A stretch of DNA of 32,000 bases from an uncultured archaeon (GCA_964551375.1 CAZKBG010000001.1:450001-482000); one strand, 5' to 3'. Positions 1,949 through 13,968 are shown, counted from the stretch's first letter. Notes: generated by a model from the sequence alone, not told the origin. Translations and numbers: made by a program.

Positions 1949-4687
1949 TTATTCAGCATTCTTAAATTTCCAAGTCACTTCTCTTGCAATAACCATAATG
2001 CCTGCGCTTGCTCCGCGCGAATCCTTCATGAGCGACGCATTAAGCTCAACTTTAACTTTCTTACCGCTCTTTTTAATCAAGTCAATCATGTAAGGCCTAA
2101 TCTCAGCACCAGCAAGCCGCTTTTTAAAATTAGCCACAACAATTGCCCTTGATTTAGTATCAATAATGCTTGAAGTAAAAATATTTTTGCCTATAAGCTC
2201 AGATTTTTTATACCCAAGCAATAAAGTGCACTTGTGGTTGGCTTCAATAATGCTCCCCTTTGAATTCAAAATAAATATAGGGTCAACTGCATTTTCAAAC
2301 AACTCATTAAATTTATTTTCAGAAGCCTTTGCAGTCATCTGAACGCTCTTTACTTTCTTAAGATCAGTCACTGAACCAACTATTCCGCCTATTTTGCCTT
2401 CAGCATCGTAGAACAGCGCCTTTGAAAGCAAAACTTCATGGAATTTCTTGTCGGAGGCAAAATACATCACCACTTCAATGCTCTCCGAGCCCTTTGATGG
2501 ATTGTTGATTAAGTTTGAATCAAGCGCAACATACATATCAGCATACTCTTTTTTGAACAATTGATGAGCAGTCTTGCCAATAATATATTCATTCTTAAGC
2601 CCCATAACAACCTCTTCATAGCTTTTATTACATCCAATATATTCCCCTTTAGTATTTTTATAAAACATAGGAATATTTACTCCGTCAAGTATTGACTGAA
2701 GGAATCTATGGCTCTCTTCAAGTTTAGTCTCAAGCTTGAGCTTTTCAGTAACATCCCTTGAGACAATTACAATGTAATCCTTTGTAAGAGTTGCACGCAT
2801 ATCAAGCACATGCCAGCTGCCGTCCTTAGCTTTGAACCTGCCTGAGACCATAATCGGCTTAATTGCATCAGATTTCCAAAATTCAACTTTGCTTTTTATA
2901 TATTCTTCAGCAATTTTCATTAATTTTCCTTTATCGTCAGGATGAGCATAATACAACGCAGGCTTTCCAATTATTTCTTCAGGAGTATAGCCAAGTATTG
3001 AATATGAAGGGCTCGCATAAACATGCTTAAACGAAGGAAGCAAATCAACAATTGCAATCATATCAGCGGCGTTTTCTGATATAAGCTTGAAGAATGACTG
3101 GCTTTCTTTAGCGCTTGCTTCAGCCGCGCGAATATCAGTTATATCCTCCCCTGAACTTAAAGTGCCTATTTTATTTCCAAATTCATCCCTTATAATTGAA
3201 TTATGCCACTTAACAAGCCTGATTTTTCCAGATTTTGTGAGAACCGAGCCATCAACATCCTCATTCTCATCAGGACCTTCGCTATTTACCGACATTAACT
3301 GGGAAAATACTTTTGAAACATTAGCCCGCTCTGATTTTGGCAGAGATATTTCAAACCAATTCTTTCCTTCAAGCGAGCCATATTCATATCCTAAAATTTC
3401 ATAACCTTTCTTGTTAAGCAGAGTAATGCATCCAGCCTTGTCAAGCGCAACAATAATGCTTCCTGTTAAATCAAGGTATTTTTGAGCCTTGGCTTCAGCC
3501 TTCTTTTTAGCGTCAATCGCTTCCCCTAACCCAATATCTTCCTTGCTCAAATCGGCTCTAAGAATTGCAAGCTTTAAACTTGCAAGTATTCTATTCAAAG
3601 AATCAGTAAGCGACTGAACCTCGGCAATATTGCTCTTTTCAAGATCGACTTCAAGCTTTCCTCTTGTTATTTCATCAACCCTCTTAGTCAATTTTAATAA
3701 CTGCCTTGAAATAAACTGCGAGGAAATAATTGATAATAAAATTGCAATAACTAAAAGAGCTCCAAGTATATACACAATATTCTGTCGCATATTTTCAAAA
3801 ACATGGGCTTCGCTTGAAATGTTTGTTGTCACAAGCGCAACTGCGACTTCTTCTTTTGAATTATCAAGAAGAACAAATCCCCCGCACGAATAATGCTCTG
3901 TTTGATCAGAAATTAATTTTGTAAAATGCTTCGATGCTTTTACCCCAAAAACAGTATCTTGAGTAAAGCAGTTGGAGCTGATAAAATTATCCTCCTCTCT
4001 TGAAATCAGCACATACTCGCCATAATCATCCCAATTATCCGCCCGGCCTGATTCAGATAAATACTCTAAATATCTTTCTTTATTGAGCTTAGCCTTTGGA
4101 ACAAATAACGCATAAACATCCGCGTGCTTTTCTGAAATTGAAGCAAGCAGAGTGTCCACATCAATCGCGCTTTCAACATACCCTTCCAAATTATTTTTTG
4201 AATAATAAGGAGATATTACCCTTAGAGAAAAATCATTTTTCCCAACCTCAATCCCAGAGCTTGTTGAAGAAGAAATTTGCGCATTCAAAAAAGACTGTCT
4301 TGTTAACACATCCCCGAATTCTTTCGGCTCATAGGGCCTGAAAAACACTTCTCCGTCAGGAAGAATAAAATACATTCGGCTTATTTTGCCGCCATCCTTT
4401 AACTCATTAAACAGAGGAAGAACTTGCTCCATTAATTTCTCTCTATTTCTTTCAATTAAACCCCCCATTAATGAATCATTTGACATAATGAGCTGGTTTA
4501 CTGAAGTCAAAATACCTATTTCTTCGCTCAAATAAACATTAAACTCATTTTCAAGATTATGCAATTTCCCGCCAGCTACTTCAGAAAGAGCCGTTTGTTC
4601 AATCTTTAGTGAAGCAAAATAAACTCCTAAAACTATCACTAAAGTAATCGCAATGATCTGCAAAAACAAAATGTGCGAAATCTTCAT
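1949..4687 (-). CDS. Membrane sensor protein: TM, Cache-like extracellular domain, TM, HAMP, four PAS domains, no kinase or other output domain
   Basis: Track ORF is 1949..4708. I prefer the ATG at 4687 (MKISHILF), which is preceded by GAGGGATAAA and sits 1 nt after the upstream kinase stop. The Cache-type pattern is MYFILPDGEVFFRPYEPKEFGDVLTRQSF...GIEVGKNDFSLRVISPYY...EGYVESAIDV, followed by a second TM (NIVYILGALLVIAILLSIISSQF). The HAMP-like linker is followed by four PAS-like units of about 120 aa. The protein ends inside the last PAS (VIAREVT), with no H-box or ATPase motifs. Confidence 0.8.
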   Translation of the reverse strand: MKISHILFLQIIAITLVIVLGVYFASLKIEQTALSEVAGGKLHNLENEFNVYLSEEIGILTSVNQLIMSNDSLMGGLIERNREKLMEQVLPLFNELKDGGKISRMYFILPDGEVFFRPYEPKEFGDVLTRQSFLNAQISSSTSSGIEVGKNDFSLRVISPYYSKNNLEGYVESAIDVDTLLASISEKHADVYALFVPKAKLNKERYLEYLSESGRADNWDDYGEYVLISREEDNFISSNCFTQDTVFGVKASKHFTKLISDQTEHYSCGGFVLLDNSKEEVAVALVTTNISSEAHVFENMRQNIVYILGALLVIAILLSIISSQFISRQLLKLTKRVDEITRGKLEVDLEKSNIAEVQSLTDSLNRILASLKLAILRADLSKEDIGLGEAIDAKKKAEAKAQKYLDLTGSIIVALDKAGCITLLNKKGYEILGYEYGSLEGKNWFEISLPKSERANVSKVFSQLMSVNSEGPDENEDVDGSVLTKSGKIRLVKWHNSIIRDEFGNKIGTLSSGEDITDIRAAEASAKESQSFFKLISENAADMIAIVDLLPSFKHVYASPSYSILGYTPEEIIGKPALYYAHPDDKGKLMKIAEEYIKSKVEFWKSDAIKPIMVSGRFKAKDGSWHVLDMRATLTKDYIVIVSRDVTEKLKLETKLEESHRFLQSILDGVNIPMFYKNTKGEYIGCNKSYEEVVMGLKNEYIIGKTAHQLFKKEYADMYVALDSNLINNPSKGSESIEVVMYFASDKKFHEVLLSKALFYDAEGKIGGIVGSVTDLKKVKSVQMTAKASENKFNELFENAVDPIFILNSKGSIIEANHKCTLLLGYKKSELIGKNIFTSSIIDTKSRAIVVANFKKRLAGAEIRPYMIDLIKKSGKKVKVELNASLMKDSRGASAGIMVIAREVTWKFKNAE

Positions 4688-4688
4688 T

Positions 4689-6941
4689 TTATCCCTCAAA
4701 ACACACATCTATTTCTTTTGAAAACTGGATATACTTCTGCTTGTTGATAATACCAATCTTTTCCAAGTATTTAATATATTCCAAAAGATTTTCCTTTGAA
4801 ATTCCTTTCTTTCTCTCAAACTCAACAAACTCTTTCTCCCCAAGAGGCCCCAAAATTTCCTTAAATAAAGCCTCAACTTTGCCTGAAATTGACTCCTTCT
4901 GCGAGAAAAGAAGCTTAATCGGCTTTAATTCCCTTGTAGGCGAGAACGGAACTGTAAAATAAATCTTTGTGCCTTTGCCCGCATCGGACTCAATCCAGAT
5001 TTTTCCTTTCTGCGATTCAATAATCCCCTTGCAGATAGTTAAACCAAGCCCCGTGCCTCCGTACTGGCGATACATTGTCTGCTCCGCCTGGAAGAACGGC
5101 TCAAATAAGCGCAACTGGTCCTTAACGGCAATTCCTATTCCGCTATCTTTCACGCTGAACAAAATATGCTCATCCTCAACACTTACTTTCACCTCAATTG
5201 TAGAAGACTCGGGCGAAAACTTTTTTGCGTTATTAATCAAGTTTCTCAAAACCTGCATTGTCCTGTCCGGATCAACTTCAATAACGGGCAATTTGCCCAT
5301 GTCAAGAGCAATTTTTATCTTCTTTTCAGGAAGGAAATTATCCATTTCCTTAACCAGCGAAACAATATAGCTTTCAAGATTAACTTTTACAAAATTAAAC
5401 TTTAATCTTGCGGCTTCAATTCTTGACACTTCCAAGAAATCCATAATAATCCTGTCAAGCCGCATCGCATTTCTTAGAACTATATCAATAGCCTCTTTCT
5501 GCTTGTCAGTCAGCTTTCCAAAATATCCTTCAGAGAGCATTTGAAGCTGGGCTCGCATAGGAGTCATAGGGCTTCTTAATTCATGGCTTGTAATTGACAA
5601 AAACTCCGTTTTAGCCCTGTCAAGCTGCCTGTGCTCATCTTCAGAATTTGAAAGAACTTTTGCAGTAATATTAATTGAGTTCGCAAGATTTTCAAGCTCA
5701 TCGCCCGTCGAAATATCAAGGCGGGTTCCGTAATTTCCGGCTTTTATTTTTTCCATCGCATTTTGAATTTTTCCAATGGGCTGGGTTATGAGAGTATAAA
5801 TAATATACCCAAGCGCAACAACAAAAAATATTATTGTGAGAATCATTATCCCAAGATTTCTTGAAAAAGTAAGCGACAGGGCGCGCGAATTTGAAAGCAC
5901 TGAATTTGCCTGCATCAAAGCATCCTCTTTTCCAACAGCAATCACAAGATACATCTCGCCCTCGTCAAGATTTAGCTTCTTGTATGCCCCCATATACTCC
6001 GTTCCGTCTTTTTTAAACCCAAAATTTCCCGAATCCTCAGAAAAATAATCCTTATTAAAAAAAGACTGCGCCGCAACCGATTCATCAACAGCATAATGCC
6101 CTTCATAATCCCCAAAATTTTCCTGTGTAACAATTGTTTTTGAAATAGTCACAGGCCATGGAAGAATCACTCCAGAATTGTTCATATATTTGGTATCAAC
6201 AAGCTCGGCAAACCCAGTATTGTAATAATAAAACAAATAATGGTCAACATCCCCTGTTATTACGCTCTGCTTAAAATTTACAACAAACAATCCTATTCTT
6301 TCGCCGTTAACATCAACAGGCTTCACAAAACGAATTACAGGAGTTTTTGTCCTGTCAGAAATGCTTATTTCAGAAATGTAATTACTCCCTTCTGGAGCAA
6401 CTCTCTTATCCATCGACTGCTTAAACCAGCTTTTAGTATTTTTGCAGTCCATAACGTCAATTTCAGAAAAAACAACCCCTGCAACAACACAGCCCTTGCT
6501 TGAAAACAGCCTCACCGCTTCAACCTCGTCATTTCGCAGAGCGAGAACGTCCTTAAAATATAAATTAATCTTGCTAACCGAATTTTCATCAAGGCAATCA
6601 GCCGGATTTTCACAAGAACTGCTTTTCACAAGAATATCTTTCATGTCATCGTATCTGTCATCAACTATTGACTCAAAAATCGCATCATAATCATCCTTGT
6701 TTGACTCAATATTGCTCGCAAGCCAACTCGCATCGTCAATTAAGGCATAATTCACCTGTGCCTCTATTCCTTCAATATACTTTAAGTTTGATTCCTCAAT
6801 CGAATTATTGAACGAATAAAGCGCGAGAAAACTCGTAAGGCACAACGGAAGCAGAACTACAAGAAGAGACAATAAAATCAATTTTCTTCTTATATTCCCA
6901 AGGAAGAATTTCCTCAAAGAAAACCCTGCTTTATCAGCCAT
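4689..6941 (-). CDS. Sensor histidine kinase (TM, dCache-like domain, TM, HAMP, HisKA, HATPase_c, ~81-aa C-terminal extension)
   Basis: H-box FLSITSHELRSPMTPM, N-box LRNLINNAKKF, G1 VKDSGIGI, F-box LFEPFFQ, G2 GGTGLGLTICKGI. The HAMP region is ITQPIGKIQNAMEKIKAGNYGTRLDISTGDELENLANSIN. The extracellular part carries the Cache pattern SWFKQSMDKR...YISEISISDRTKTPVIRFVKPVDVNGERIGLFVVNF. Confidence 0.9.
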   Translation of the reverse strand: MADKAGFSLRKFFLGNIRRKLILLSLLVVLLPLCLTSFLALYSFNNSIEESNLKYIEGIEAQVNYALIDDASWLASNIESNKDDYDAIFESIVDDRYDDMKDILVKSSSCENPADCLDENSVSKINLYFKDVLALRNDEVEAVRLFSSKGCVVAGVVFSEIDVMDCKNTKSWFKQSMDKRVAPEGSNYISEISISDRTKTPVIRFVKPVDVNGERIGLFVVNFKQSVITGDVDHYLFYYYNTGFAELVDTKYMNNSGVILPWPVTISKTIVTQENFGDYEGHYAVDESVAAQSFFNKDYFSEDSGNFGFKKDGTEYMGAYKKLNLDEGEMYLVIAVGKEDALMQANSVLSNSRALSLTFSRNLGIMILTIIFFVVALGYIIYTLITQPIGKIQNAMEKIKAGNYGTRLDISTGDELENLANSINITAKVLSNSEDEHRQLDRAKTEFLSITSHELRSPMTPMRAQLQMLSEGYFGKLTDKQKEAIDIVLRNAMRLDRIIMDFLEVSRIEAARLKFNFVKVNLESYIVSLVKEMDNFLPEKKIKIALDMGKLPVIEVDPDRTMQVLRNLINNAKKFSPESSTIEVKVSVEDEHILFSVKDSGIGIAVKDQLRLFEPFFQAEQTMYRQYGGTGLGLTICKGIIESQKGKIWIESDAGKGTKIYFTVPFSPTRELKPIKLLFSQKESISGKVEALFKEILGPLGEKEFVEFERKKGISKENLLEYIKYLEKIGIINKQKYIQFSKEIDVCFEG

Positions 6942-6951
6942 AAAAACTAAA

Positions 6952-7482
6952 TCACTTCAAGTTAATTACTTTATCAACAAACATTCCTGTCTCCTGAATC
7001 AAAAGCGACTGCTCGTTTGTATTAAGCGCGTAAAACACAGCCTTTGATTTTGAGGATTTTATTTTATTTATCAGCATCGAAACAAACTTTTGAACAGGCT
7101 CTTTTTTTTCGTAAATCAAAAGATTTGTCAGGGAATCAAAAATAACATACTCATAATCATGCCCCAAAAACCTGCTGACTGCAAGCGAAAGCTCGGTTAA
7201 CGCTCCCGGAGAATTAATGTAATAGCATCCTTTTGTCTGGTCGGGCACTTCTTTAATGGTTTTTGTGATAGCATCAATAAAAACAATATTATTCACATTT
7301 ATTTTGTTCTTTTTGAAAAGCTCCTTTAAAGAATCAAAGGTTTTATTCAGTGTCACATAGCAGACATTCTTTTTCGCAAGAATTTTAGCAATCTCAAGAA
7401 TTGTTTCATTATAATCAAGGCTGTCAACTAAAAGTAAAACCGTCTGGTTGCTCTTTAATTCATTTTCAATATTTATCTTCAT
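6952..7482 (-). CDS. KaiC/RecA-fold paralog lacking the Walker A P-loop (predicted inactive ATPase-like adaptor)
   Basis: The 176-aa protein is colinear with the KaiC-like ATPase at 8311..9108. TVLLLVDSLDYNE sits where FVLLAGGAGTGKT is, CYVTLNKTFDSL matches IYVSLEENYDQ, YVIFDSLTNLL matches RLVIDSISVLE, and FVDKVINL matches VADGVILL. There is no GxxGxGK[ST] motif anywhere. Confidence 0.65.
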   Translation of the reverse strand: MKINIENELKSNQTVLLLVDSLDYNETILEIAKILAKKNVCYVTLNKTFDSLKELFKKNKINVNNIVFIDAITKTIKEVPDQTKGCYYINSPGALTELSLAVSRFLGHDYEYVIFDSLTNLLIYEKKEPVQKFVSMLINKIKSSKSKAVFYALNTNEQSLLIQETGMFVDKVINLK

Positions 7483-7566
7483 TAAAATACCTTTTCCATT
7501 TTGTCCATCATTTTTATTTTTTATTTTGCATTTAACTTTTCATTCCAATTAAATCCAAAATTATTT

Positions 7567-7938
7567 CTATTTTGTAAGCTCCCTTACTTTAGCCACTAAC
7601 TCATTGATATCAAACGGCTTCTGAAGAAAATCAACAACATTGCCTTCTTTTAGCAAATCTTCCCTCTCGGCTTCGGATAATCGCACAACGCTAAGATATG
7701 CAACTTTTATTCCCTTGATTTTAGGAATTATTTTTTTCACAGGAGTTCCCGGCATCATGATATCCATAAGGATAAGATCCGGCTTGTCCTTTTTTAATTT
7801 TTCAAGACAATCGTCGCCGTTTATCGCAGTAAGCACCTTAAAACCGTTTCTCTCAAGAACAGTCTTCACAGTGTACCTAATATCGTCCTCGTCATCAACG
7901 ACCATTACCACTTTTTCAGTTGTGTTTTTCTCCGCCAT
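7567..7938 (-). CDS. Stand-alone response regulator receiver (CheY-like)
   Basis: VVMVVDDEDD acidic pocket, phospho-acceptor context DLILMDIMMPG, conserved Lys in FLQKPF. At 123 aa there is no output domain. AGGTGGTAAA precedes the ATG. Confidence 0.9.
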   Translation of the reverse strand: MAEKNTTEKVVMVVDDEDDIRYTVKTVLERNGFKVLTAINGDDCLEKLKKDKPDLILMDIMMPGTPVKKIIPKIKGIKVAYLSVVRLSEAEREDLLKEGNVVDFLQKPFDINELVAKVRELTK

Positions 7939-7946
7939 TTTACCAC

Positions 7947-8297
7947 CTAAGCAACAAGCTTCTTTACTATTTTAACATACTCCGACTCATCAAAGGGTTT
8001 CTGGATAAATCCGTCAACCTTTGAAAGATTAACCTCTTTTTTAGGAACAATTGACACAAACGCAAGCTTGCATTTGCCATTCAAACGCTCCCTCAAAAGC
8101 CTTGCAAGATCATAACCCGACAAGGTATTCATTTTTATATCAAGCAAAACAAGATTAAACTTTTCCAGCTTGAATAAATCCCACGCAAGCGCGCCGTTTG
8201 TCGCAACGTGAACTTCAATGCTTTCCTTTTCAAGAAGCTTTTTTGCTCTTTGCAGGTAATTGAAGTCGTCATCAACCAGCAGCACTTTTTTAACCAA
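7947..8297 (-). CDS. Stand-alone response regulator receiver (CheY-like)
   Basis: KVLLVDDD, LVLLDIKMNTLSG and IQKPF motifs. Track ORF is 7947..8348 with a TTG start that overlaps the KaiC-like gene by 38 nt. I prefer the in-frame TTG at 8297, which follows TAG-CGGAGGTGGTGCG: the KaiC stop, then a strong Shine-Dalgarno sequence with 5-nt spacing. Confidence 0.85.
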   Translation of the reverse strand: MVKKVLLVDDDFNYLQRAKKLLEKESIEVHVATNGALAWDLFKLEKFNLVLLDIKMNTLSGYDLARLLRERLNGKCKLAFVSIVPKKEVNLSKVDGFIQKPFDESEYVKIVKKLVA

Positions 8298-8310
8298 CGC
8301 ACCACCTCCG

Positions 8311-9108
8311 CTAGAATGTTTCGAACGATTCTTCGAAAGGATAAACAACCATTCCTTCCCTCTTCTTTATCTGAACAGGGCGGATTTTTAACGAGTGATT
8401 TGTCGCACGCATTTTTCTCACGCTGATTGCTCTGTTTAGAACATTCTCTTTCTTATCAAGCAGAAGCAAAATTACCCCGTCTGCAACAAATTCTTCAACA
8501 CCGCTTCGCGACATGCTGACTCGGTCTTCTTTTGTTTCTGAAATCGCAAGAGTGGTAACGCCAGTTTTTTTCAAAGCATTCGCAAGATCAACAATGCTTC
8601 TCCTTGTTTTGAATCTGTCCTCAAAATAAAGCTCAAGAACCGAGATTGAATCAATAACCAGCCTCTTTGCGCCGATTGAATCAATCGCATCAAGAATACT
8701 TTCAATTAATTTGTCAAAATCATAAATCTTGGGCTCAAGAACCAGAACCTGTCTTGTTGCAACAAGCTTAGTTAAGTCCATTCCAAACCCGACCATCTGA
8801 AGCTTGTTCTGGTCATAGTTTTCTTCAAGAGAAACATAAATTCCCTTCTCGCCGTTAATTGCCCCAAAAGTCAAAAAATTCATCCCAAAAATAGTTTTTC
8901 CTGTTCCAGCTCCGCCCGCAAGAAGAACAAAAGAATTTTTCGGCAGTCCGCCCTCAATAAGCTCATCAAACCCTTTAACTCCTGTGGCAACTCTTTCAAT
9001 TTCAGGCTGTTTTACTTTAGAAAAATCGATGCTTGAAGCAAGGTCCTTAGATTTTTTTGATTTAGAAAAATTCTTTTTAGACACAATATCTCCCCAAACA
9101 ACTAGCAT
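8311..9108 (-). CDS. Single-domain KaiC-like / RecA-superfamily ATPase
   Basis: ATGVKGFDELIEGGLPKNSFVLLAGGAGTGKTIFGMNF is the KaiC-type N-terminus with Walker A. Walker B is KRLVIDSISVLE. It is the first gene of the signalling operon. A GTG at 9084 preceded by GGGGAG is an alternative start. Confidence 0.85.
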   Translation of the reverse strand: MLVVWGDIVSKKNFSKSKKSKDLASSIDFSKVKQPEIERVATGVKGFDELIEGGLPKNSFVLLAGGAGTGKTIFGMNFLTFGAINGEKGIYVSLEENYDQNKLQMVGFGMDLTKLVATRQVLVLEPKIYDFDKLIESILDAIDSIGAKRLVIDSISVLELYFEDRFKTRRSIVDLANALKKTGVTTLAISETKEDRVSMSRSGVEEFVADGVILLLLDKKENVLNRAISVRKMRATNHSLKIRPVQIKKREGMVVYPFEESFETF

Positions 9109-9134
9109 TATAACGATTTTCTGATTTTTAATTG

Positions 9135-9142
9135 TTTTTATA
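9135..9142 (-). promoter_or_regulatory. Putative TATA box of the KaiC-like signalling operon
   Basis: The minus strand reads TATAAAAA, centred about 30 nt upstream of the ATG at 9108. This fits an archaeal leaderless or short-leader promoter. Confidence 0.35.
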
Positions 9143-9157
9143 CGAAAAAAAAGGAAG

Positions 9158-9166
9158 TTATATAAA
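9158..9166 (+). promoter_or_regulatory. Putative TATA box of the solo pilin gene
   Basis: TTATATAAA lies about 30 nt upstream of the ATG at 9196, back to back with the oppositely oriented box at 9135..9142. Confidence 0.35.
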
Positions 9167-9195
9167 CAAAAAATGCGTTGGTTTGACGGATAATA

Positions 9196-9651
9196 ATGAA
9201 AGAAAACGCCAAAATGAACAATAAAGCGCAGTCCGGACTTGAGTATTTAATGACTTACGGATGGGCAATAATAGCAATTGCCGTGATTGTCGGAATAATT
9301 ATGGTGCTTTTAGGCAATTCCACAACAGTTCAGCAGTGCAACATGAGCCCGTCACACGGGGCAATCACTTATGTTGAAAGTTCAGCGCTGGCAAACACAT
9401 TTACTTTCATAATAAAAAATGACACAGGAAAAACAATCACTGGAGTAACTTACTCTTTTAAAGGAAACTTCGCACAAAGCGCATCAACTACAAATGACAG
9501 TTCAATTACAGCAAATTCAACCGTGACAAAAACAGTTTCAAACACAGGACTTTCAAAACAAATGCCTTATGATGAAACTATCACAATTAATTACAACAGA
9601 CAGGGCGTTTTGATGTCATCAACACTAAACTGCACAGGAACAGTACCATAA
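9196..9651 (+). CDS. Archaeal type IV pilin (class III signal peptide); candidate major pilin
   Basis: The N-terminus MKENAKMNNKAQSGLEYLMTYGWAIIAIAVIVGIIMVLL has the [KR][GA]-Q-x-x-L-E-Y class III signal followed by a hydrophobic helix. By my count there are six N-x-S/T sequons (NST, NMS, NDT, NDS, NST, NCT) in the ~110-aa mature part, plus two Cys. It has its own promoter. Confidence 0.8.
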   Translation: MKENAKMNNKAQSGLEYLMTYGWAIIAIAVIVGIIMVLLGNSTTVQQCNMSPSHGAITYVESSALANTFTFIIKNDTGKTITGVTYSFKGNFAQSASTTNDSSITANSTVTKTVSNTGLSKQMPYDETITINYNRQGVLMSSTLNCTGTVP

Positions 9652-9824: not shown

Positions 9825-10841
9825 CTAAAACAAAACTATGTTTTTTAATCCAATCATCTGCCCAAGCATCAGAACTGCAATAAAATAAACCGCAAGCGAA
9901 ACGATGATAAGAATAGGGAAGAATCTCAAACCAGCAAGCTCCCTTCCGTACCTTATTATTCCGATTAAAAGACTTGCAAAAAATGATGTGCAGAACAGGC
10001 ATGCAAATGAAAAAAACCTAATCATTTCAAAAGGAACCTGCTGTTTTTGGGTCGTGTCCCCAAACAGAGTTGAAATGAACGGGATTGAATGGCTGTCAAC
10101 ATTTTCAGGAATTGAAATAGTCTTCTGGTCAGACATCATCTGGGAAACAACAACACCAGAGCCAAAAAGCATGGGCGCGCCTATAGCAGCAGCTATGATA
10201 ATTAAGAAAATGTACATGGAAATATTCGCTTTAATCTCGCTGTTTATCGCTTCTTCCTCTCTCAAATCCTTTGAAACTCTAAGAAGCAGGCTTCCAAAAG
10301 AGCCTCCTTTTTTTATTCCTTCAATAAGCAGCCAGATTGTTTTTCCAAGAACATACGAATTAACTTTTTTAGAAATGGTTGTTAACGCCTCTTCAAGAGT
10401 TCTGCCCGAAAACATTTCCTTTGCGGCGCGCTTTAACAAAAGCGCAAGCTCTCCAAATTCAGGGCGCGCAGACTCAACAAGCGCATTTTCAACAGTAAGC
10501 CCCGAGTTAACATTGGTGGCAACAAGCTCAAGCGCATTGGGAAGATTCTGCTCAACCCTTCTGACTCTTGCAAGCTCATAATAATCAAGCACAACATAAA
10601 TAGCAAATAATATTATTACAGCCGCAGCAAAGAATGCCCCAATTGCATAAAAAATTGACTTATAGACAAAGAATATGTCAAATCCTGCCAAAGCTCCCAG
10701 CATAAAAGGGAGCGCCATCAAAAATCCGATTATTTTTCTTTTTGAAACCTTATCTCCTTCAATCCAGAGCTTACGCTCAAAAGCATCAGTAATAAAAGAA
10801 GGAAATAAATCCCCAATCCTAAGCCAAATTGCCCCCTTCAT
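9825..10841 (-). CDS. Pilus platform membrane protein with a single T2SSF domain (TadC/FlaJ-like)
   Basis: The T2SSF-type cytoplasmic block is QNLPNALELVATNVNSGLTVENALVESARPEFGELALLLKRAAKEMFSGRTLEEAL...GSFGSLLLRVSKDL. It is flanked by TM helices. The start abuts the previous gene's stop (TAAATG). Confidence 0.8.
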   Translation of the reverse strand: MKGAIWLRIGDLFPSFITDAFERKLWIEGDKVSKRKIIGFLMALPFMLGALAGFDIFFVYKSIFYAIGAFFAAAVIILFAIYVVLDYYELARVRRVEQNLPNALELVATNVNSGLTVENALVESARPEFGELALLLKRAAKEMFSGRTLEEALTTISKKVNSYVLGKTIWLLIEGIKKGGSFGSLLLRVSKDLREEEAINSEIKANISMYIFLIIIAAAIGAPMLFGSGVVVSQMMSDQKTISIPENVDSHSIPFISTLFGDTTQKQQVPFEMIRFFSFACLFCTSFFASLLIGIIRYGRELAGLRFFPILIIVSLAVYFIAVLMLGQMIGLKNIVLF

Positions 10842-11738
10842 TTAAACACTCCCCATTAAACTTGGCCTTCTTGATTTCATAAAACCAACAAGCATAAATT
10901 GCGCAACAACTACTCCGACTAATAAAATTATAAACAAGGAAGAGCTGATTTGAACTCCGGGAAGCGAATTCATCACAGCAAGGAAAGTCAAAGCCATTGC
11001 GGGAACAATAACCGCTATCATCATGTAAACAAGAGTAAGAACTCTAAGAGAAGAACCGTAAGCAATAATTTGTGTTTTTTGATATCTTTCAAGAGATTCA
11101 AGACTTTCTTCAATAACCTGCGCAATCGGCGCGCCTGCTTTCATTCCTGATACAATCTGCCACAATACTTTGCTCAAAAACTGGCTTGAATTTTTTGAAG
11201 CAACATCCTTAAGCACCTCATCTTCCTTTTCACCCGAGTTAAGCCTTTTTGCAATTCCCCTAAAAACTGCCCCCATTTCTCCAAGCTCATTTCTTGACAC
11301 AATAACCATCGCATCAAAAAGGCTCACACCTGCTTCAAGCTGGACAAGAACAACTTTTAATCCAAAGATTAAGTTTGAATCAATTGAGGCAACTTTCTTC
11401 TGCATGTAAATTGTGGGGAACAAAAGCATTCTAATAAAAACAAGAACCCCTATGGCAAGCCCTACTCCAATTCCAGCAATAATCGCCAAGTCAAATTTCG
11501 CAAGCGAAAGAGTGCCCGCAATAACAAAAGCAATAATCACGCCGTAAAAGAGCGAGCTAAAAATTGACACGGCAAAATAATCATCGCTTCCCATGTCAAT
11601 GCCTGCCTGCTCAAGCACCGTGTCATAGCCAGGAAAGAAACTTCCAATAAATTCTCCGACTCCAAGAAACGGCGCGCTGAGTTTTTTAGCAGTATTCTCG
11701 CTTATCGGCACGAACAAAAAGTTTGTCATCAAAATCAC
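10842..11738 (-). CDS. Pilus platform membrane protein with a single T2SSF domain (TadB/FlaJ-like)
   Basis: The T2SSF-type block is LIFGLKVVLVQLEAGVSLFDAMVIVSRNELGEMGAVFRGIAKRLNSGEKEDEVL...GAPIAQVIEESLESLE, with flanking TM helices. The start is GTG at 11738 or ATG at 11729, directly after the ATPase gene. Confidence 0.8.
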   Translation of the reverse strand: MILMTNFLFVPISENTAKKLSAPFLGVGEFIGSFFPGYDTVLEQAGIDMGSDDYFAVSIFSSLFYGVIIAFVIAGTLSLAKFDLAIIAGIGVGLAIGVLVFIRMLLFPTIYMQKKVASIDSNLIFGLKVVLVQLEAGVSLFDAMVIVSRNELGEMGAVFRGIAKRLNSGEKEDEVLKDVASKNSSQFLSKVLWQIVSGMKAGAPIAQVIEESLESLERYQKTQIIAYGSSLRVLTLVYMMIAVIVPAMALTFLAVMNSLPGVQISSSLFIILLVGVVVAQFMLVGFMKSRRPSLMGSV

Positions 11739-11740
11739 TC

Positions 11741-13300
11741 TTATTCAAACAAAAGCCTCGGGTCCTTCCCTTTTTGAGAAAACTCATAAACTAAATCAGG
11801 CGACTGATAGTACTTTGCAAAAATCATTCCCAAGTCATCAAGTCTGAAAATATTGTTTTTCACAAGCCAATCAAGTATTTTTTCCTTCTGCTTTAATTCA
11901 GAATCTATTTCTCCCGCGCCCATTCCGGTGTGAACGCTGATTAAGTCATAGAATCTCACGCTATCATGCTGTTTTTTGATAATGCCCTTTGTTGAAATAT
12001 ACCTAAACAAAACATTTGCCTTTGCGGACTGTTCAATTCCCCTGTCTTCAACTACAATTTCAGAAATCTGGTAAATTGACCTCTGGCTTGTCTTGCTGTT
12101 TCTAAAAAGAGTAATGTTAAGCCCGATTGACGCAAGCATCCCTTGCGGAATATCAAGCGGAGGGTTAGCAAATCTTCTAATTGTTTCCTCAGCAGTATCC
12201 GCGTGGAAAGTAGCATACACACTATGCCCTGTGTTCATCGCTTCAAACATTACTTCCGCTTCCTTCTGCCTTCTAACTTCCCCAACAACTATTCTATCCG
12301 GACGCATTCTCAGCGAGTTCACCAAAAGGTCAAGCATTGAAATCTCCCCCTTGCCTTCAGTGTTTGCGGGCCTTGAAACCATAGGCACCCAGTGAAGGAA
12401 TTTAGGAAGAGTTAATTCCCTTGTGTCTTCAATTGAAATTACTCTCTGAGTAGGAGGAATTAATGAAAGGCACGCGTTAAGAAGCGAAGTTTTACCGCTT
12501 GCTGTGCCCCCAGAGAAAATTACATTAAGCTCGTAATGCATAGCCATCCATATAATTGCCATTGATTCGCTTGAAGCGCTTCCGTTTGAAATTAATTCTG
12601 TAACAGTCCAGGGATTTCTTCTAAATCTTCGGATTGTAATAGTATTGCCGTGAGACGACACAGGGTTAAGCGTCGCATTAGCTCTGTCCCCGCTTGAAAG
12701 ATGCGCGTCAAGAAGCGGAGTAAGAACGGTAATCTGCTTTCCTGATCTTCTTGCAATGATTGAAGCAAAGTTTTCAATTTCTTTTTCAGAATCAAACCAT
12801 AAATTAGTCTTCATCCAGCCGTATTTTTTGTGATAAATCCACGCAGGCTCAATAGCCGAGTTAAGCACTATTTCTTCAATATTGTCATCGAGAAGAACAT
12901 ATTCCAAATCCGCGAGCCCCAGCATTTCGTTAATTAAAATTTCAACAAGGACTTCAATATTCTTTTTTTCAGAGCCGAACAATCTTTTTGCCAAAAGCTC
13001 ATGCGCAAAAAACGAGAAATCTTTTCTCACAGATTCTATAAATTTCTGGTCAACCATTTTCTCAACAGGGATTTTTGAACGAGAAAGAATTTCAATTTTA
13101 ATTTCATCAAGAGTAATTCTTGTTCCGGAGCCAACTTCAGGATAAGATATGTGGTAGTGCGGAACAAAATCCTTAGGATCGTTGAATAAAATAACTTTAA
13201 CCGCAGCCTTGCAGTTTTCAATAGGATATTCGCCAATCATTGCTTCAGGATTAACAATCTCAGCTTCTCTTCTTCTGATACCGCTGCTTGATTCATTCAT
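11741..13300 (-). CDS. Type IV pilus / secretion ATPase (FlaI / PilB / VirB11 family)
   Basis: Walker A is FSGGTASGKTSLLNACL. Other family motifs are VISIEDTRELTL, the Asp box RPDRIVVGEVRRQKEA, and the His box NTGHSVYATFHA. Confidence 0.9.
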   Translation of the reverse strand: MNESSSGIRRREAEIVNPEAMIGEYPIENCKAAVKVILFNDPKDFVPHYHISYPEVGSGTRITLDEIKIEILSRSKIPVEKMVDQKFIESVRKDFSFFAHELLAKRLFGSEKKNIEVLVEILINEMLGLADLEYVLLDDNIEEIVLNSAIEPAWIYHKKYGWMKTNLWFDSEKEIENFASIIARRSGKQITVLTPLLDAHLSSGDRANATLNPVSSHGNTITIRRFRRNPWTVTELISNGSASSESMAIIWMAMHYELNVIFSGGTASGKTSLLNACLSLIPPTQRVISIEDTRELTLPKFLHWVPMVSRPANTEGKGEISMLDLLVNSLRMRPDRIVVGEVRRQKEAEVMFEAMNTGHSVYATFHADTAEETIRRFANPPLDIPQGMLASIGLNITLFRNSKTSQRSIYQISEIVVEDRGIEQSAKANVLFRYISTKGIIKKQHDSVRFYDLISVHTGMGAGEIDSELKQKEKILDWLVKNNIFRLDDLGMIFAKYYQSPDLVYEFSQKGKDPRLLFE

Positions 13301-13968
13301 TCAAGATCACCTTTCTCGCTAAAAACAATCCGTGGATTTCCCATTAGGGGATAAAATATTTTCATTCTGCCAGATTCTTCAAATACTCTTGCGAGCTCAA
13401 GAACGTCACTCTCTTTAACTGCGAGGGATTTTGACAAATCTGCAACTGAAACTGATTTTCTTACCGAGACAATAGAATACATTCTGTCAAAAATCGTCTT
13501 AACTTGATTTGAGCCTATTATTCCACCGTCAACAATTGATTTATCAGATGCATTTTTCTTATCCTTTGCGCTTATTGACGCCCACTTGCCTCTGCCTCCT
13601 TTTCCTTTATTGACCAAAATTATATTCTCTCTTGCAGCCCATCTCTTTCTCTTAACTTCAGGAGGACAAATTAAGTTTGACTTGCTCACGCTTGACAACT
13701 TTTCACTGTCATCGCAAATTTCATTAAAACTGGGTTTTGAGGATTGTTTGTTTTTCAAAGAAACCGCCTTTTTCGGCTTAACTGCCCCTTTAGAAAAAAC
13801 TTTTTTTGAAATAACTTTTGCTTTTTTCTTTATTCTAACCCCCTTATTGGTTTTTTTTTCATTTTTTTTAGCAGTATCTTTAACGCTGGCTTTAGCCTTA
13901 TTTTTGGCTTTGCCTTTAACCCCTCTTTTTCCGCCAAGGATTTCGTCTATTAGTTGAATATTAACCAT
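13297..13968 (-). CDS. Hypothetical protein: Lys-rich N-terminal half plus a C-terminal winged-helix-like domain
   Basis: The N-terminal ~100 aa are very Lys-rich (KGKAKNKAKASVKDTAKKNEKKTNKGVRIKKKAKVISKK). The C-terminal ~70 aa (SVADLSKSLAVKESDVLELARVFEESGRMKIFYP) look like a wHTH. Its stop overlaps the ATPase start (ATGA at 13297..13300). Confidence 0.55.
   Translation of the reverse strand: MVNIQLIDEILGGKRGVKGKAKNKAKASVKDTAKKNEKKTNKGVRIKKKAKVISKKVFSKGAVKPKKAVSLKNKQSSKPSFNEICDDSEKLSSVSKSNLICPPEVKRKRWAARENIILVNKGKGGRGKWASISAKDKKNASDKSIVDGGIIGSNQVKTIFDRMYSIVSVRKSVSVADLSKSLAVKESDVLELARVFEESGRMKIFYPLMGNPRIVFSEKGDLE

Follow-up and report, generated by a model that had tools for sequence, protein, structure and literature searches.

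The stretch of DNA considered here, hereafter the window, comprises 32,000 nucleotides (nt) of one contig (C1) of the source genome G000 (G000:C1:450001-482000). Next to the genes of a type IV pilus, it encodes in succession a KaiC-family ATPase, two receivers (REC1 and REC2), a KaiC-like protein without a P-loop (the dead KaiC), a histidine kinase and a kinase-less co-sensor. The genome (1.09 Mb in 10 contigs, 93% complete) is taken to be that of a DPANN archaeon because its nearest public relatives are labelled Woesearchaeota, Nanoarchaeota or Pacearchaeota. The DPANN are tiny archaea, most of which live on the cells of a host, and their type IV pili are leading candidates for attaching to it; to our knowledge, almost nothing is known of how they sense or regulate. 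They were almost free of two-component systems in a 2018 archaeal census (Galperin et al. 2018, PMC5847659). Genome-wide searches of G000 found two receiver domains, which are REC1 and REC2, and one histidine kinase, at 4689-6941 of the window; another HATPase_c match, considered as a second kinase, is topoisomerase VI B. Gene order and phylogeny indicate that the six-gene stretch is two modules joined, a KaiC of the pilus locus and a DPANN two-component cassette. Its genes and features are as follows.

8311-9108, minus strand: single-domain KaiC-family ATPase with intact motifs (PF06745, E 1.5e-59)
7947-8297, minus strand: REC1, a stand-alone receiver (open reading frame 7947-8348; PF00072, E 3.1e-17)
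7567-7938, minus strand: REC2, a stand-alone receiver (PF00072, E 2.5e-19)
7483-7566, minus strand: AT-rich spacer of 84 nt from REC2 to the dead KaiC (sequence)
6952-7482, minus strand: dead KaiC (iKaiC), 176 amino acids (aa), P-loop-less KaiC/ArlH fold (AlphaFold2, Foldseek, hhalign)
4689-6941, minus strand: membrane histidine kinase (HAMP, HisKA and HATPase_c by Pfam and NCBIfam)
4692-4940, minus strand: conserved 83-aa C-terminal tail of the kinase, residues ~668-750 (alignment)
1949-4708, minus strand: kinase-less co-sensor with dCache_3, transmembrane, HAMP and four PAS regions (dCache_3 E 6e-11; TIGR00229)

All six open reading frames (ORFs) are co-directional on the minus strand and run from 9108 down to 1949 in the ORF listing and translation. 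The initial annotation had named these genes in this order and at these places, as ORFs and Pfam/NCBIfam assignments agree, and the junctions it gave, of 13 nt or less apart from one of 84 nt, agree with the sequence. Read there, the junctions are 13 nt between KaiC and REC1, 8 nt between REC1 and REC2, 84 nt between REC2 and the dead KaiC, 10 nt between the dead KaiC and the kinase, and a 1-nt gap or a 20-nt overlap between kinase and co-sensor, according to the start chosen (4687 or 4708). The 13-nt gap takes TTG 8297 as the REC1 start, a choice that draws on a preceding Shine-Dalgarno-like motif, GGAGGTG, and on the orthologue in genome G004; the co-sensor appears to be translationally coupled to the kinase. 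In other genomes the junction between REC2 and the dead KaiC measures 2-13 nt, so the 84-nt spacer seems peculiar to the lineage of G000; an internal promoter within it is possible.

REC2 and the dead KaiC

The output of this two-component system is probably the catalytically dead KaiC-like protein. Its AlphaFold2 model, made from an alignment of 26 orthologues, has a predicted local distance difference test score (pLDDT) of 91.6, and its top Foldseek matches are ArlH/FlaH (4YDS), the KaiC-like protein PH0284 (2DR3, TMq 0.74) and KaiC itself. Alignment to KaiC by hhalign, run profile against profile (the profile-to-single-sequence version was uninformative), gave E 2.4e-4 and placed the losses: the P-loop is deleted and the Glu-Glu pair has become Asn-Lys, with the Walker B Asp retained. 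The Asn-Lys sits in the motif YVTLNKT, and the replacement motifs are invariant in the 26 orthologues. The three methods thus bear out the earlier description of the protein as a P-loop-less KaiC-like paralog and point to a KaiC/ArlH-like fold.

No Pfam or NCBIfam model reaches its threshold on this protein. Sub-threshold Pfam matches are to DUF7504 (23.3 bits, cut-off 27), DUF7090 and KaiC (both below 14 bits) and DUF835; weak DUF7090 and DUF7504 matches occur in 26/26 family members, many of which also match KaiC or DUF835, and a few distant members exceed the DUF7504 cut-off. The family is large and closely conserved: 366 close homologues of ~175 aa share 58-94% identity, and at E <= 1e-3 it comprises 2,323 representatives of 50%-identity clusters (1,434 at <= 1e-10). 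G000 alone has seven members, together with six full-length KaiC ATPases and seven pilus-type ATPases. In the family tree the window protein falls within a receiver-partnered group, and the six other G000 paralogues fall in a group partnered with KaiC or pilus genes. Among longer relatives, a ~285-298-aa subfamily (P0281, P0298, P0311, P0327 and about 20 more) has an N-terminal dead-KaiC domain followed by an unannotated ~110-aa C-terminal extension, and larger proteins of 396-847 aa carry the domain internally, one of them with a weak CheC-like match.

What is the dead KaiC coupled to? Its gene neighbourhood was surveyed in 74 loci from distinct genomes other than G000. ORF calls in these loci followed a simple longest-ORF rule, and their labels came from phmmer comparison with the window proteins, which makes all the counts approximate, and the related genomes among them are not independent. 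The gene directly upstream of the dead KaiC encodes a receiver in 54/71 loci. The adjoining receiver is of the REC2 type in 49 of 56, and a second receiver upstream is of the REC1 type in 20 of 25. Both window receivers keep the DD / D / S / K catalytic residues; REC1 has the acidic pair, the acceptor Asp (LLDIKM), the Ser and the Lys.

In two Thermoplasmatota loci the two genes are one: a single protein has an N-terminal receiver and a C-terminal dead KaiC with YVTLNKT. A database search brought the number of such fusions to about 13 protein clusters of 284-335 aa. Their domain order is the gene order, with only a short linker between the halves, and over the receiver half their identity to REC2 and its orthologues is 53-57% (53% for REC2 itself). 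Adjacency in 49/56 loci and the Rosetta-stone pattern of natural fusions together argue that REC2 and the dead KaiC most likely form one split response regulator, and the two are predicted to bind each other. Receivers fused to inactivated KaiC domains have been published as iKaiC-REC, REC-DUF835 and MEDS-REC (PMC5847659). The dead KaiC shares with iKaiC output domains the KaiC/RecA fold, the lost motifs and the coupling to a receiver.

Kinase, co-sensor and the reach of the cassette

The kinase has two transmembrane segments flanking a ~310-aa outer domain, followed by HAMP, HisKA and HATPase_c. Its boxes (SHELRSPMT, NNAKKFS, DSGIGI, FEPFFQ, GGTGLGL) are intact, as are the motifs of the receivers, so that the set of two-component motifs is complete; phosphotransfer from kinase to receiver is predicted. 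The initial annotation had given both sensors a Cache domain. This holds for the co-sensor, whose dCache_3 match scores 42.8 bits against a cut-off of 25.7, but not for the outer domain of the kinase, which has no Pfam Cache match even at E 10 and no PDB match, does not resemble the dCache_1 domains that cassette kinases have in other genomes, and matches only HK_sensor_dom_bact, below threshold. Beyond dCache_3, the 919-aa co-sensor has HAMP and PAS families by Pfam, four PAS stretches by TIGR00229 (NCBIfam), and no output domain. Its orthologue follows the kinase in G014, and PAS or Cache proteins follow the kinase at many other loci. Another kinase-less membrane sensor, of 519 aa, with an outer domain, HAMP and one PAS, is encoded at G000:C2:22831-24390; its HAMP and linker closely resemble those of the co-sensor, which brings the genome to two output-less sensors against one kinase.

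At its C-terminus the kinase carries a tail that the initial annotation did not mention. Its motif is PVKEIKPIKLLFS...LGPLGExEF...YIxxLxKxGI, and it has counterparts elsewhere: in 28 of 37 cassette kinases the chain continues for more than 100 residues after the G2 box, and some have the tail in duplicate. Neither Pfam nor the PDB gave the tail a significant match. Weak matches are to the HxlR, pRN and MCM (MCM_C) winged-helix families (E 0.013-0.1, below threshold) and to the NirD-like 4CH7, and a winged-helix-like module for docking or DNA binding is possible. The earlier statement that the system lacks a DNA-binding output is right for the receivers; the kinase has this sub-threshold resemblance in its tail.

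Could the output lie here, or with the receivers themselves? The tail might act in transcription as a winged-helix DNA-binding output, as its weak matches would suggest, although every one of them falls below threshold. Alternatively, the receivers might, as CheY does, work directly on the pilus machinery, leaving the dead KaiC as an ArlH-like structural or assembly partner of KaiC. Archaeal stand-alone receivers commonly act by protein-protein contact (PMC5847659), the dead KaiC matches ArlH/FlaH best in fold, and the six other dead-KaiC paralogues of G000 have no receiver at all; against this, the constant adjacency of REC2 and the dead KaiC and their natural fusions argue that they are one unit. 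Taken together, outputs of these kinds are improbable.

A kinase is found no more than three genes downstream of the dead KaiC in 40/65 loci, and Pfam-annotated metagenome contigs show REC-REC-deadKaiC, then a dCache-HAMP kinase, then further Cache/PAS sensors, some with tandem REC-deadKaiC repeats and all in unrelated surroundings. The loci come from Woesearchaeota, Nanoarchaeota, Pacearchaeota, Iainarchaeota, Micrarchaeota, Undinarchaeota, Aenigmarchaeota and Thermoplasmatota. By this synteny, REC1, REC2, dead KaiC, kinase and co-sensor constitute a cassette spread over the DPANN and some Thermoplasmatota. The earlier view of the stretch as unusually elaborate is apt in that this is the only two-component system of its genome, but its 2,323 cluster representatives show the cassette to be common among DPANN archaea.

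Several variations were seen on the cassette elsewhere. A periplasmic solute-binding protein of the NMT1/phosphonate-binding type (~335-345 aa) is inserted between dead KaiC and kinase at L040 (6450-7454) and L044 (10580-11581), and also in L064, L066 and L090, and might serve the kinase as a partner that presents ligand; the window has no such insert. Up to three tandem REC-deadKaiC units precede one kinase at L042 (5978-9528) and L044 (8224-10496). A hemerythrin gene lies directly before KaiC in L042, and a hemerythrin-KaiC fusion lies downstream in L044. Three cassette contigs (L083, L087, L091) are binned as Sulfurovum, Chloroflexota or 'bacterium'; their proteins are typical of the archaeal family, so they are probably mis-binned DPANN contigs and not transfers.

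Does the KaiC-family ATPase belong to the cassette as well? A KaiC with a P-loop lies within 10 kb of the cassette in 25/73 loci, against a baseline of ~11% roughly estimated from six KaiC genes in 1.09 Mb, and the cassette thus appears linked to KaiC. This link and the identical gene order in G004 are what could be said for one ancient operon of KaiC, REC, REC, dead KaiC, kinase and sensor with an active/inactive KaiC pair at its core, the picture implicit in the initial annotation. However, outside G000 and G004, KaiC stands directly upstream of REC1 in no examined locus, being usually found downstream of the kinase and sensors and belonging to another clade, and G014 and G027 do not have the arrangement. 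An ancient six-gene unit is thus very improbable; conservation of gene order holds widely for the five genes of the cassette, and not for six with KaiC as one unit.

The KaiC-family ATPase and the pilus locus

The ATPase at 8311-9108 scores 201.6 bits against PF06745 (cut-off 26.6) and has a Walker A motif (GGAGTGKT), a catalytic Glu pair (SLEEN) and a Walker B motif (RLVIDS). Comparison with the G004 orthologue offers an alternative start at GTG 9084, for a protein of 257 aa. NCBIfam KaiC models match at E 1e-37 to 1e-50, the ArlH model at 1e-11 and RadA/RadB at ~1e-4. The claim that this is a KaiC-like protein, and not a RadA/RadB paralog, is upheld by these scores, in which the KaiC models outdo RadA, RadB and DnaB by far; a RadA/RadB or DnaB identity was rejected at E ~1e-4 or worse versus 1e-50. 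ArlH was rejected at 45 bits versus an NCBIfam equivalog cut-off of 215, with neighbours that are Tad-like pilus genes and not arl genes. A circadian KaiC (circ_KaiC / PRK09302) was rejected for a single-domain protein of 265 aa scoring 171.6 bits vs 408 and 104.7 vs 546, and Pfam searches of the window ORFs showed no KaiB-like gene. An anti-phage defence role was also rejected, the PADLOC matches being weak and to generic domains only.

Beside the KaiC gene lies the pilus locus.

9109-9195: divergent region of 87 bp between the KaiC gene and the solo pilin gene (sequence)
9196-9651, plus strand: solo type IV pilin with a class III signal peptide (N-terminus ...AQSGLEYLMTYGWAIIAIAVIV)
9825-10841, minus strand: TadC-like pilus core gene (Pfam T2SSF)
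10842-11738, minus strand: TadB-like pilus core gene (Pfam T2SSF)
11741-13300, minus strand: PilB/ArlI-family ATPase (Pfam T2SSE; NCBIfam FlaI/TadA-type models)

KaiC sits beside pilus core genes in G004, G014, L090, G016, G025 and a second locus of G000 itself. That paralogous locus (C1:861868-869311) contains, in order, a relative of the 223-aa protein described below, a pilus ATPase, TadB, TadC, two opposite-strand pilins, KaiC and a dead KaiC that overlaps KaiC by 4 nt, and it has no two-component genes. The divergent pilin/KaiC layout recurs there and in G004, G014, G025 and G016; the solo pilin has orthologues at the same position in G004 and G014 and two paralogues in the second G000 locus. 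G016 and G025, too, have a dead KaiC after KaiC next to pilus or pilin genes, and KaiC-deadKaiC pairs occur in G028, G034 and G036.

Phylogeny agrees with this layout. In a careful maximum-likelihood tree, five pilus-adjacent KaiCs (those of the window, G004, G014 and L090, and the G000 paralogue) group together with support 91/89, and the KaiCs that usually accompany the cassette fall, with strong support, in a clade of their own. An approximately unbiased (AU) test rejects uniting the group of the window KaiC with these cassette-type KaiCs (p 0.0072). Clade and paralogous layout together assign the window KaiC to the pilus locus and, as judged from sequence, not to the cassette.

The closest relatives show how the modules meet. 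G004, of the same genus and ~90% identical, has an identical order from pilus ATPase to kinase. In G014, of the same genus and 50-70% identical, a convergent dead KaiC stands together with KaiC, the pilus genes and a pilin on the opposite strand. G027, from another family, has pilus genes, REC1, REC2 and dead KaiC with no KaiC between, and a second kinase-REC-deadKaiC set elsewhere. It would appear that in the genus of G000 a receiver-controlled dead KaiC fills the slot held by a constitutive dead KaiC in sister pilus loci.

Several pilus and KaiC genes lie farther out, and ~50 kb of the G000 chromosome is crowded with pilus, KaiC and signalling genes. A Lys-rich 223-aa protein (window 13297-13968, minus strand), for which no family was found, is translationally coupled to the pilus ATPase. 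In the second pilus locus a weak paralogue (E 1e-5) takes the corresponding place (G000:C1:868904-869311), and G004 has an orthologue of 307 aa. A third pilus core set, with an 802-aa ATPase, TadB and TadC, lies 18-30 kb before the window (G000:C1:419807-432705) with a dead-KaiC-family gene directly upstream. About 6 kb beyond it are a KaiC (431815), which groups with cassette-adjacent KaiCs from other genomes, and a divergent dead-KaiC-like gene (431181).

Proposed signal flow and known systems

These observations suggest a model in which the pilus-locus KaiC has been joined to the five-gene cassette and the signal runs from the kinase through REC2 and the dead KaiC to KaiC and the pilus, a reading that we hold to be somewhat better than an even bet. 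The outer domain of the kinase and the dCache/HAMP/4xPAS co-sensor would sense outside and inside signals. The kinase would autophosphorylate and hand the phosphoryl group to REC2, with REC1 as a second acceptor or sink, and phosphorylated REC2 would alter the binding of the dead KaiC. The dead KaiC sits where the usual dead partner of the pilus KaiC sits, and on that ground it would most likely engage the active KaiC and so set the activity of the pilus ATPase or the expression of pilin. Binding of the dead KaiC to KaiC is predicted, as is the pilus output, a step drawn from local synteny.

A number of findings weigh against this model. At the level of the regulator, the AlphaFold2 model of one fusion (pLDDT 86, predicted template modelling score 0.69) is too low in confidence either to define or to exclude a fixed interface between REC and dead KaiC, and the dead-KaiC tree has weak support at its deep branches. 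Where cassettes have a nearby KaiC, it is mostly another, longer type. The G000 KaiC at 431815, ~20 kb off, belongs to a wider clade that holds the cassette-type KaiC. The groups compared in the AU test were picked only after a first tree had been viewed. The KaiC-REC1 junction is found only in G000 and the ~90%-identical G004, and in G014 REC2, kinase and sensor lie on another contig, away from the pilus locus. Pilus genes flank the cassette in 8/73 loci, which is no enrichment over the 14% of the G000 chromosome that lies within 10 kb of pilus core genes; the cassette is thus not generally pilus-linked, and its link to the pilus would be local to the genus of G000.

Could the two modules be neighbours by accident? 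The cassette would then be self-contained, with its target elsewhere (the KaiC at G000:C1:431815 and its dead partner, or another), and the pilus KaiC would lie upstream by chance, perhaps being read through into REC1. The baseline frequency of pilus genes, the separate clade of cassette-linked KaiCs and the displaced kinase module of G014 all favour such an account, as does the company of most cassettes, which lie among mechanosensitive channels, transposases, giant proteins and P-type ATPases. However, the KaiC-REC1 junction is 13 nt long and includes a ribosome-binding motif, and in G014 the receiver-type dead KaiC is still beside the pilus KaiC even though the kinase module has moved. Moreover, the cassette abuts pilus genes through at least three types of junction (L078, G027:C52, L090, L092, L101), and KaiC followed by dead KaiC is the normal layout of such pilus loci. 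Chance adjacency keeps substantial weight, but we regard it as doubtful, and prefer the model in which the cassette feeds into the pilus KaiC.

A bolder form of that model is a phospho-switchable pseudo-ATPase, in which REC2 and the dead KaiC bind to the ring of the pilus KaiC or poison it, so that outside cues, possibly host contact, would govern assembly, and in which the REC2-deadKaiC cassette would be the main signalling device of the DPANN, plugging into different KaiC hubs by lineage. We consider it unlikely in this full form. If true, such control would be a route to the pilus unlike the bacterial PilS/PilR and Pil-Chp systems and the archaeal link between Che and the archaellum. 

Apart from this bolder form, the locus is of interest in several ways. 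One widely conserved sensing cassette, here the only one of its genome, probably has as its output a KaiC-fold pseudo-enzyme and not a DNA-binding domain. The dead KaiC directly downstream offers a concrete partner for pilus-locus KaiCs; G000, G004, G014 and G027 provide a natural junction of modules at which to ask whether KaiC hubs take two-component input; and the REC2-deadKaiC fusions are a ready-made construct for structural work.

Pilus control as the output of the joined modules is plausible, and three precedents are consistent with a route through KaiC: KaiC ATPases are associated with archaeal pilus loci (Makarova, Koonin and Albers 2016, PMC4858521), ArlH, which binds ArlI according to its own phosphorylation state, acts on that ATPase (PMC8978795), and the KaiC-like CirA regulates arl genes in Haloferax volcanii (PMC10983859). 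The pilus output proposed in the initial annotation gains from the pilus-adjacent clade of the window KaiC and from the KaiC-deadKaiC pairs beside pilus or pilin genes in several relatives, but not from the surroundings of the cassette, where pilus genes are not enriched, and it stays conditional.

How does the locus compare with known systems? The iKaiC-REC, REC-DUF835 and MEDS-REC regulators (PMC5847659) likewise couple a receiver to a KaiC-fold domain without ATPase motifs, and signalling would in both cases go by protein contacts and not by DNA binding. Here, however, the parts are separate genes in a fixed order of REC1, REC2, dead KaiC and kinase, and the dead KaiC is a distinct 175-aa family below Pfam/NCBIfam thresholds, in a DPANN lineage. 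Like the pilus-locus KaiCs (PMC4858521), the window has a single-domain KaiC beside a VirB11/TadC-type operon, predicted to be a regulator, for which a second interacting component was postulated; in this archaeal order that component can be named, as the dead KaiC directly downstream of KaiC, and in the genus of G000 it takes a form under receiver control and linked to a sensor kinase. ArlH (FlaH) is also a KaiC/RecA-fold protein adjoining an ATPase of the PilB/ArlI family, and its structure 4YDS is the best match of the dead KaiC, but ArlH binds ATP, whereas the dead KaiC has no P-loop and there are no archaellum genes here.

CirA is a single-domain KaiC-like protein too, encoded beside the filament genes it regulates but transcribed apart from them, and its network includes a two-component system (PMC10983859; PMC13464002). 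It differs in affecting arl transcription, motility and cell shape in a haloarchaeon, with no dead-KaiC partner or adjacent kinase described. Cyanobacterial KaiC, with SasA/CikA-RpaA, also couples a KaiC-family ATPase to a histidine kinase and a receiver. It has two domains, KaiA and KaiB as partners, and a signal that passes from KaiC to the kinase, whereas the system of G000 has one KaiC domain, no KaiA or KaiB seen, and a proposed flow from kinase to KaiC. The known kinds to which the locus belongs are thus the iKaiC outputs of response regulators and the pilus-linked KaiC ATPases, and the six-gene stretch joins variants of both.

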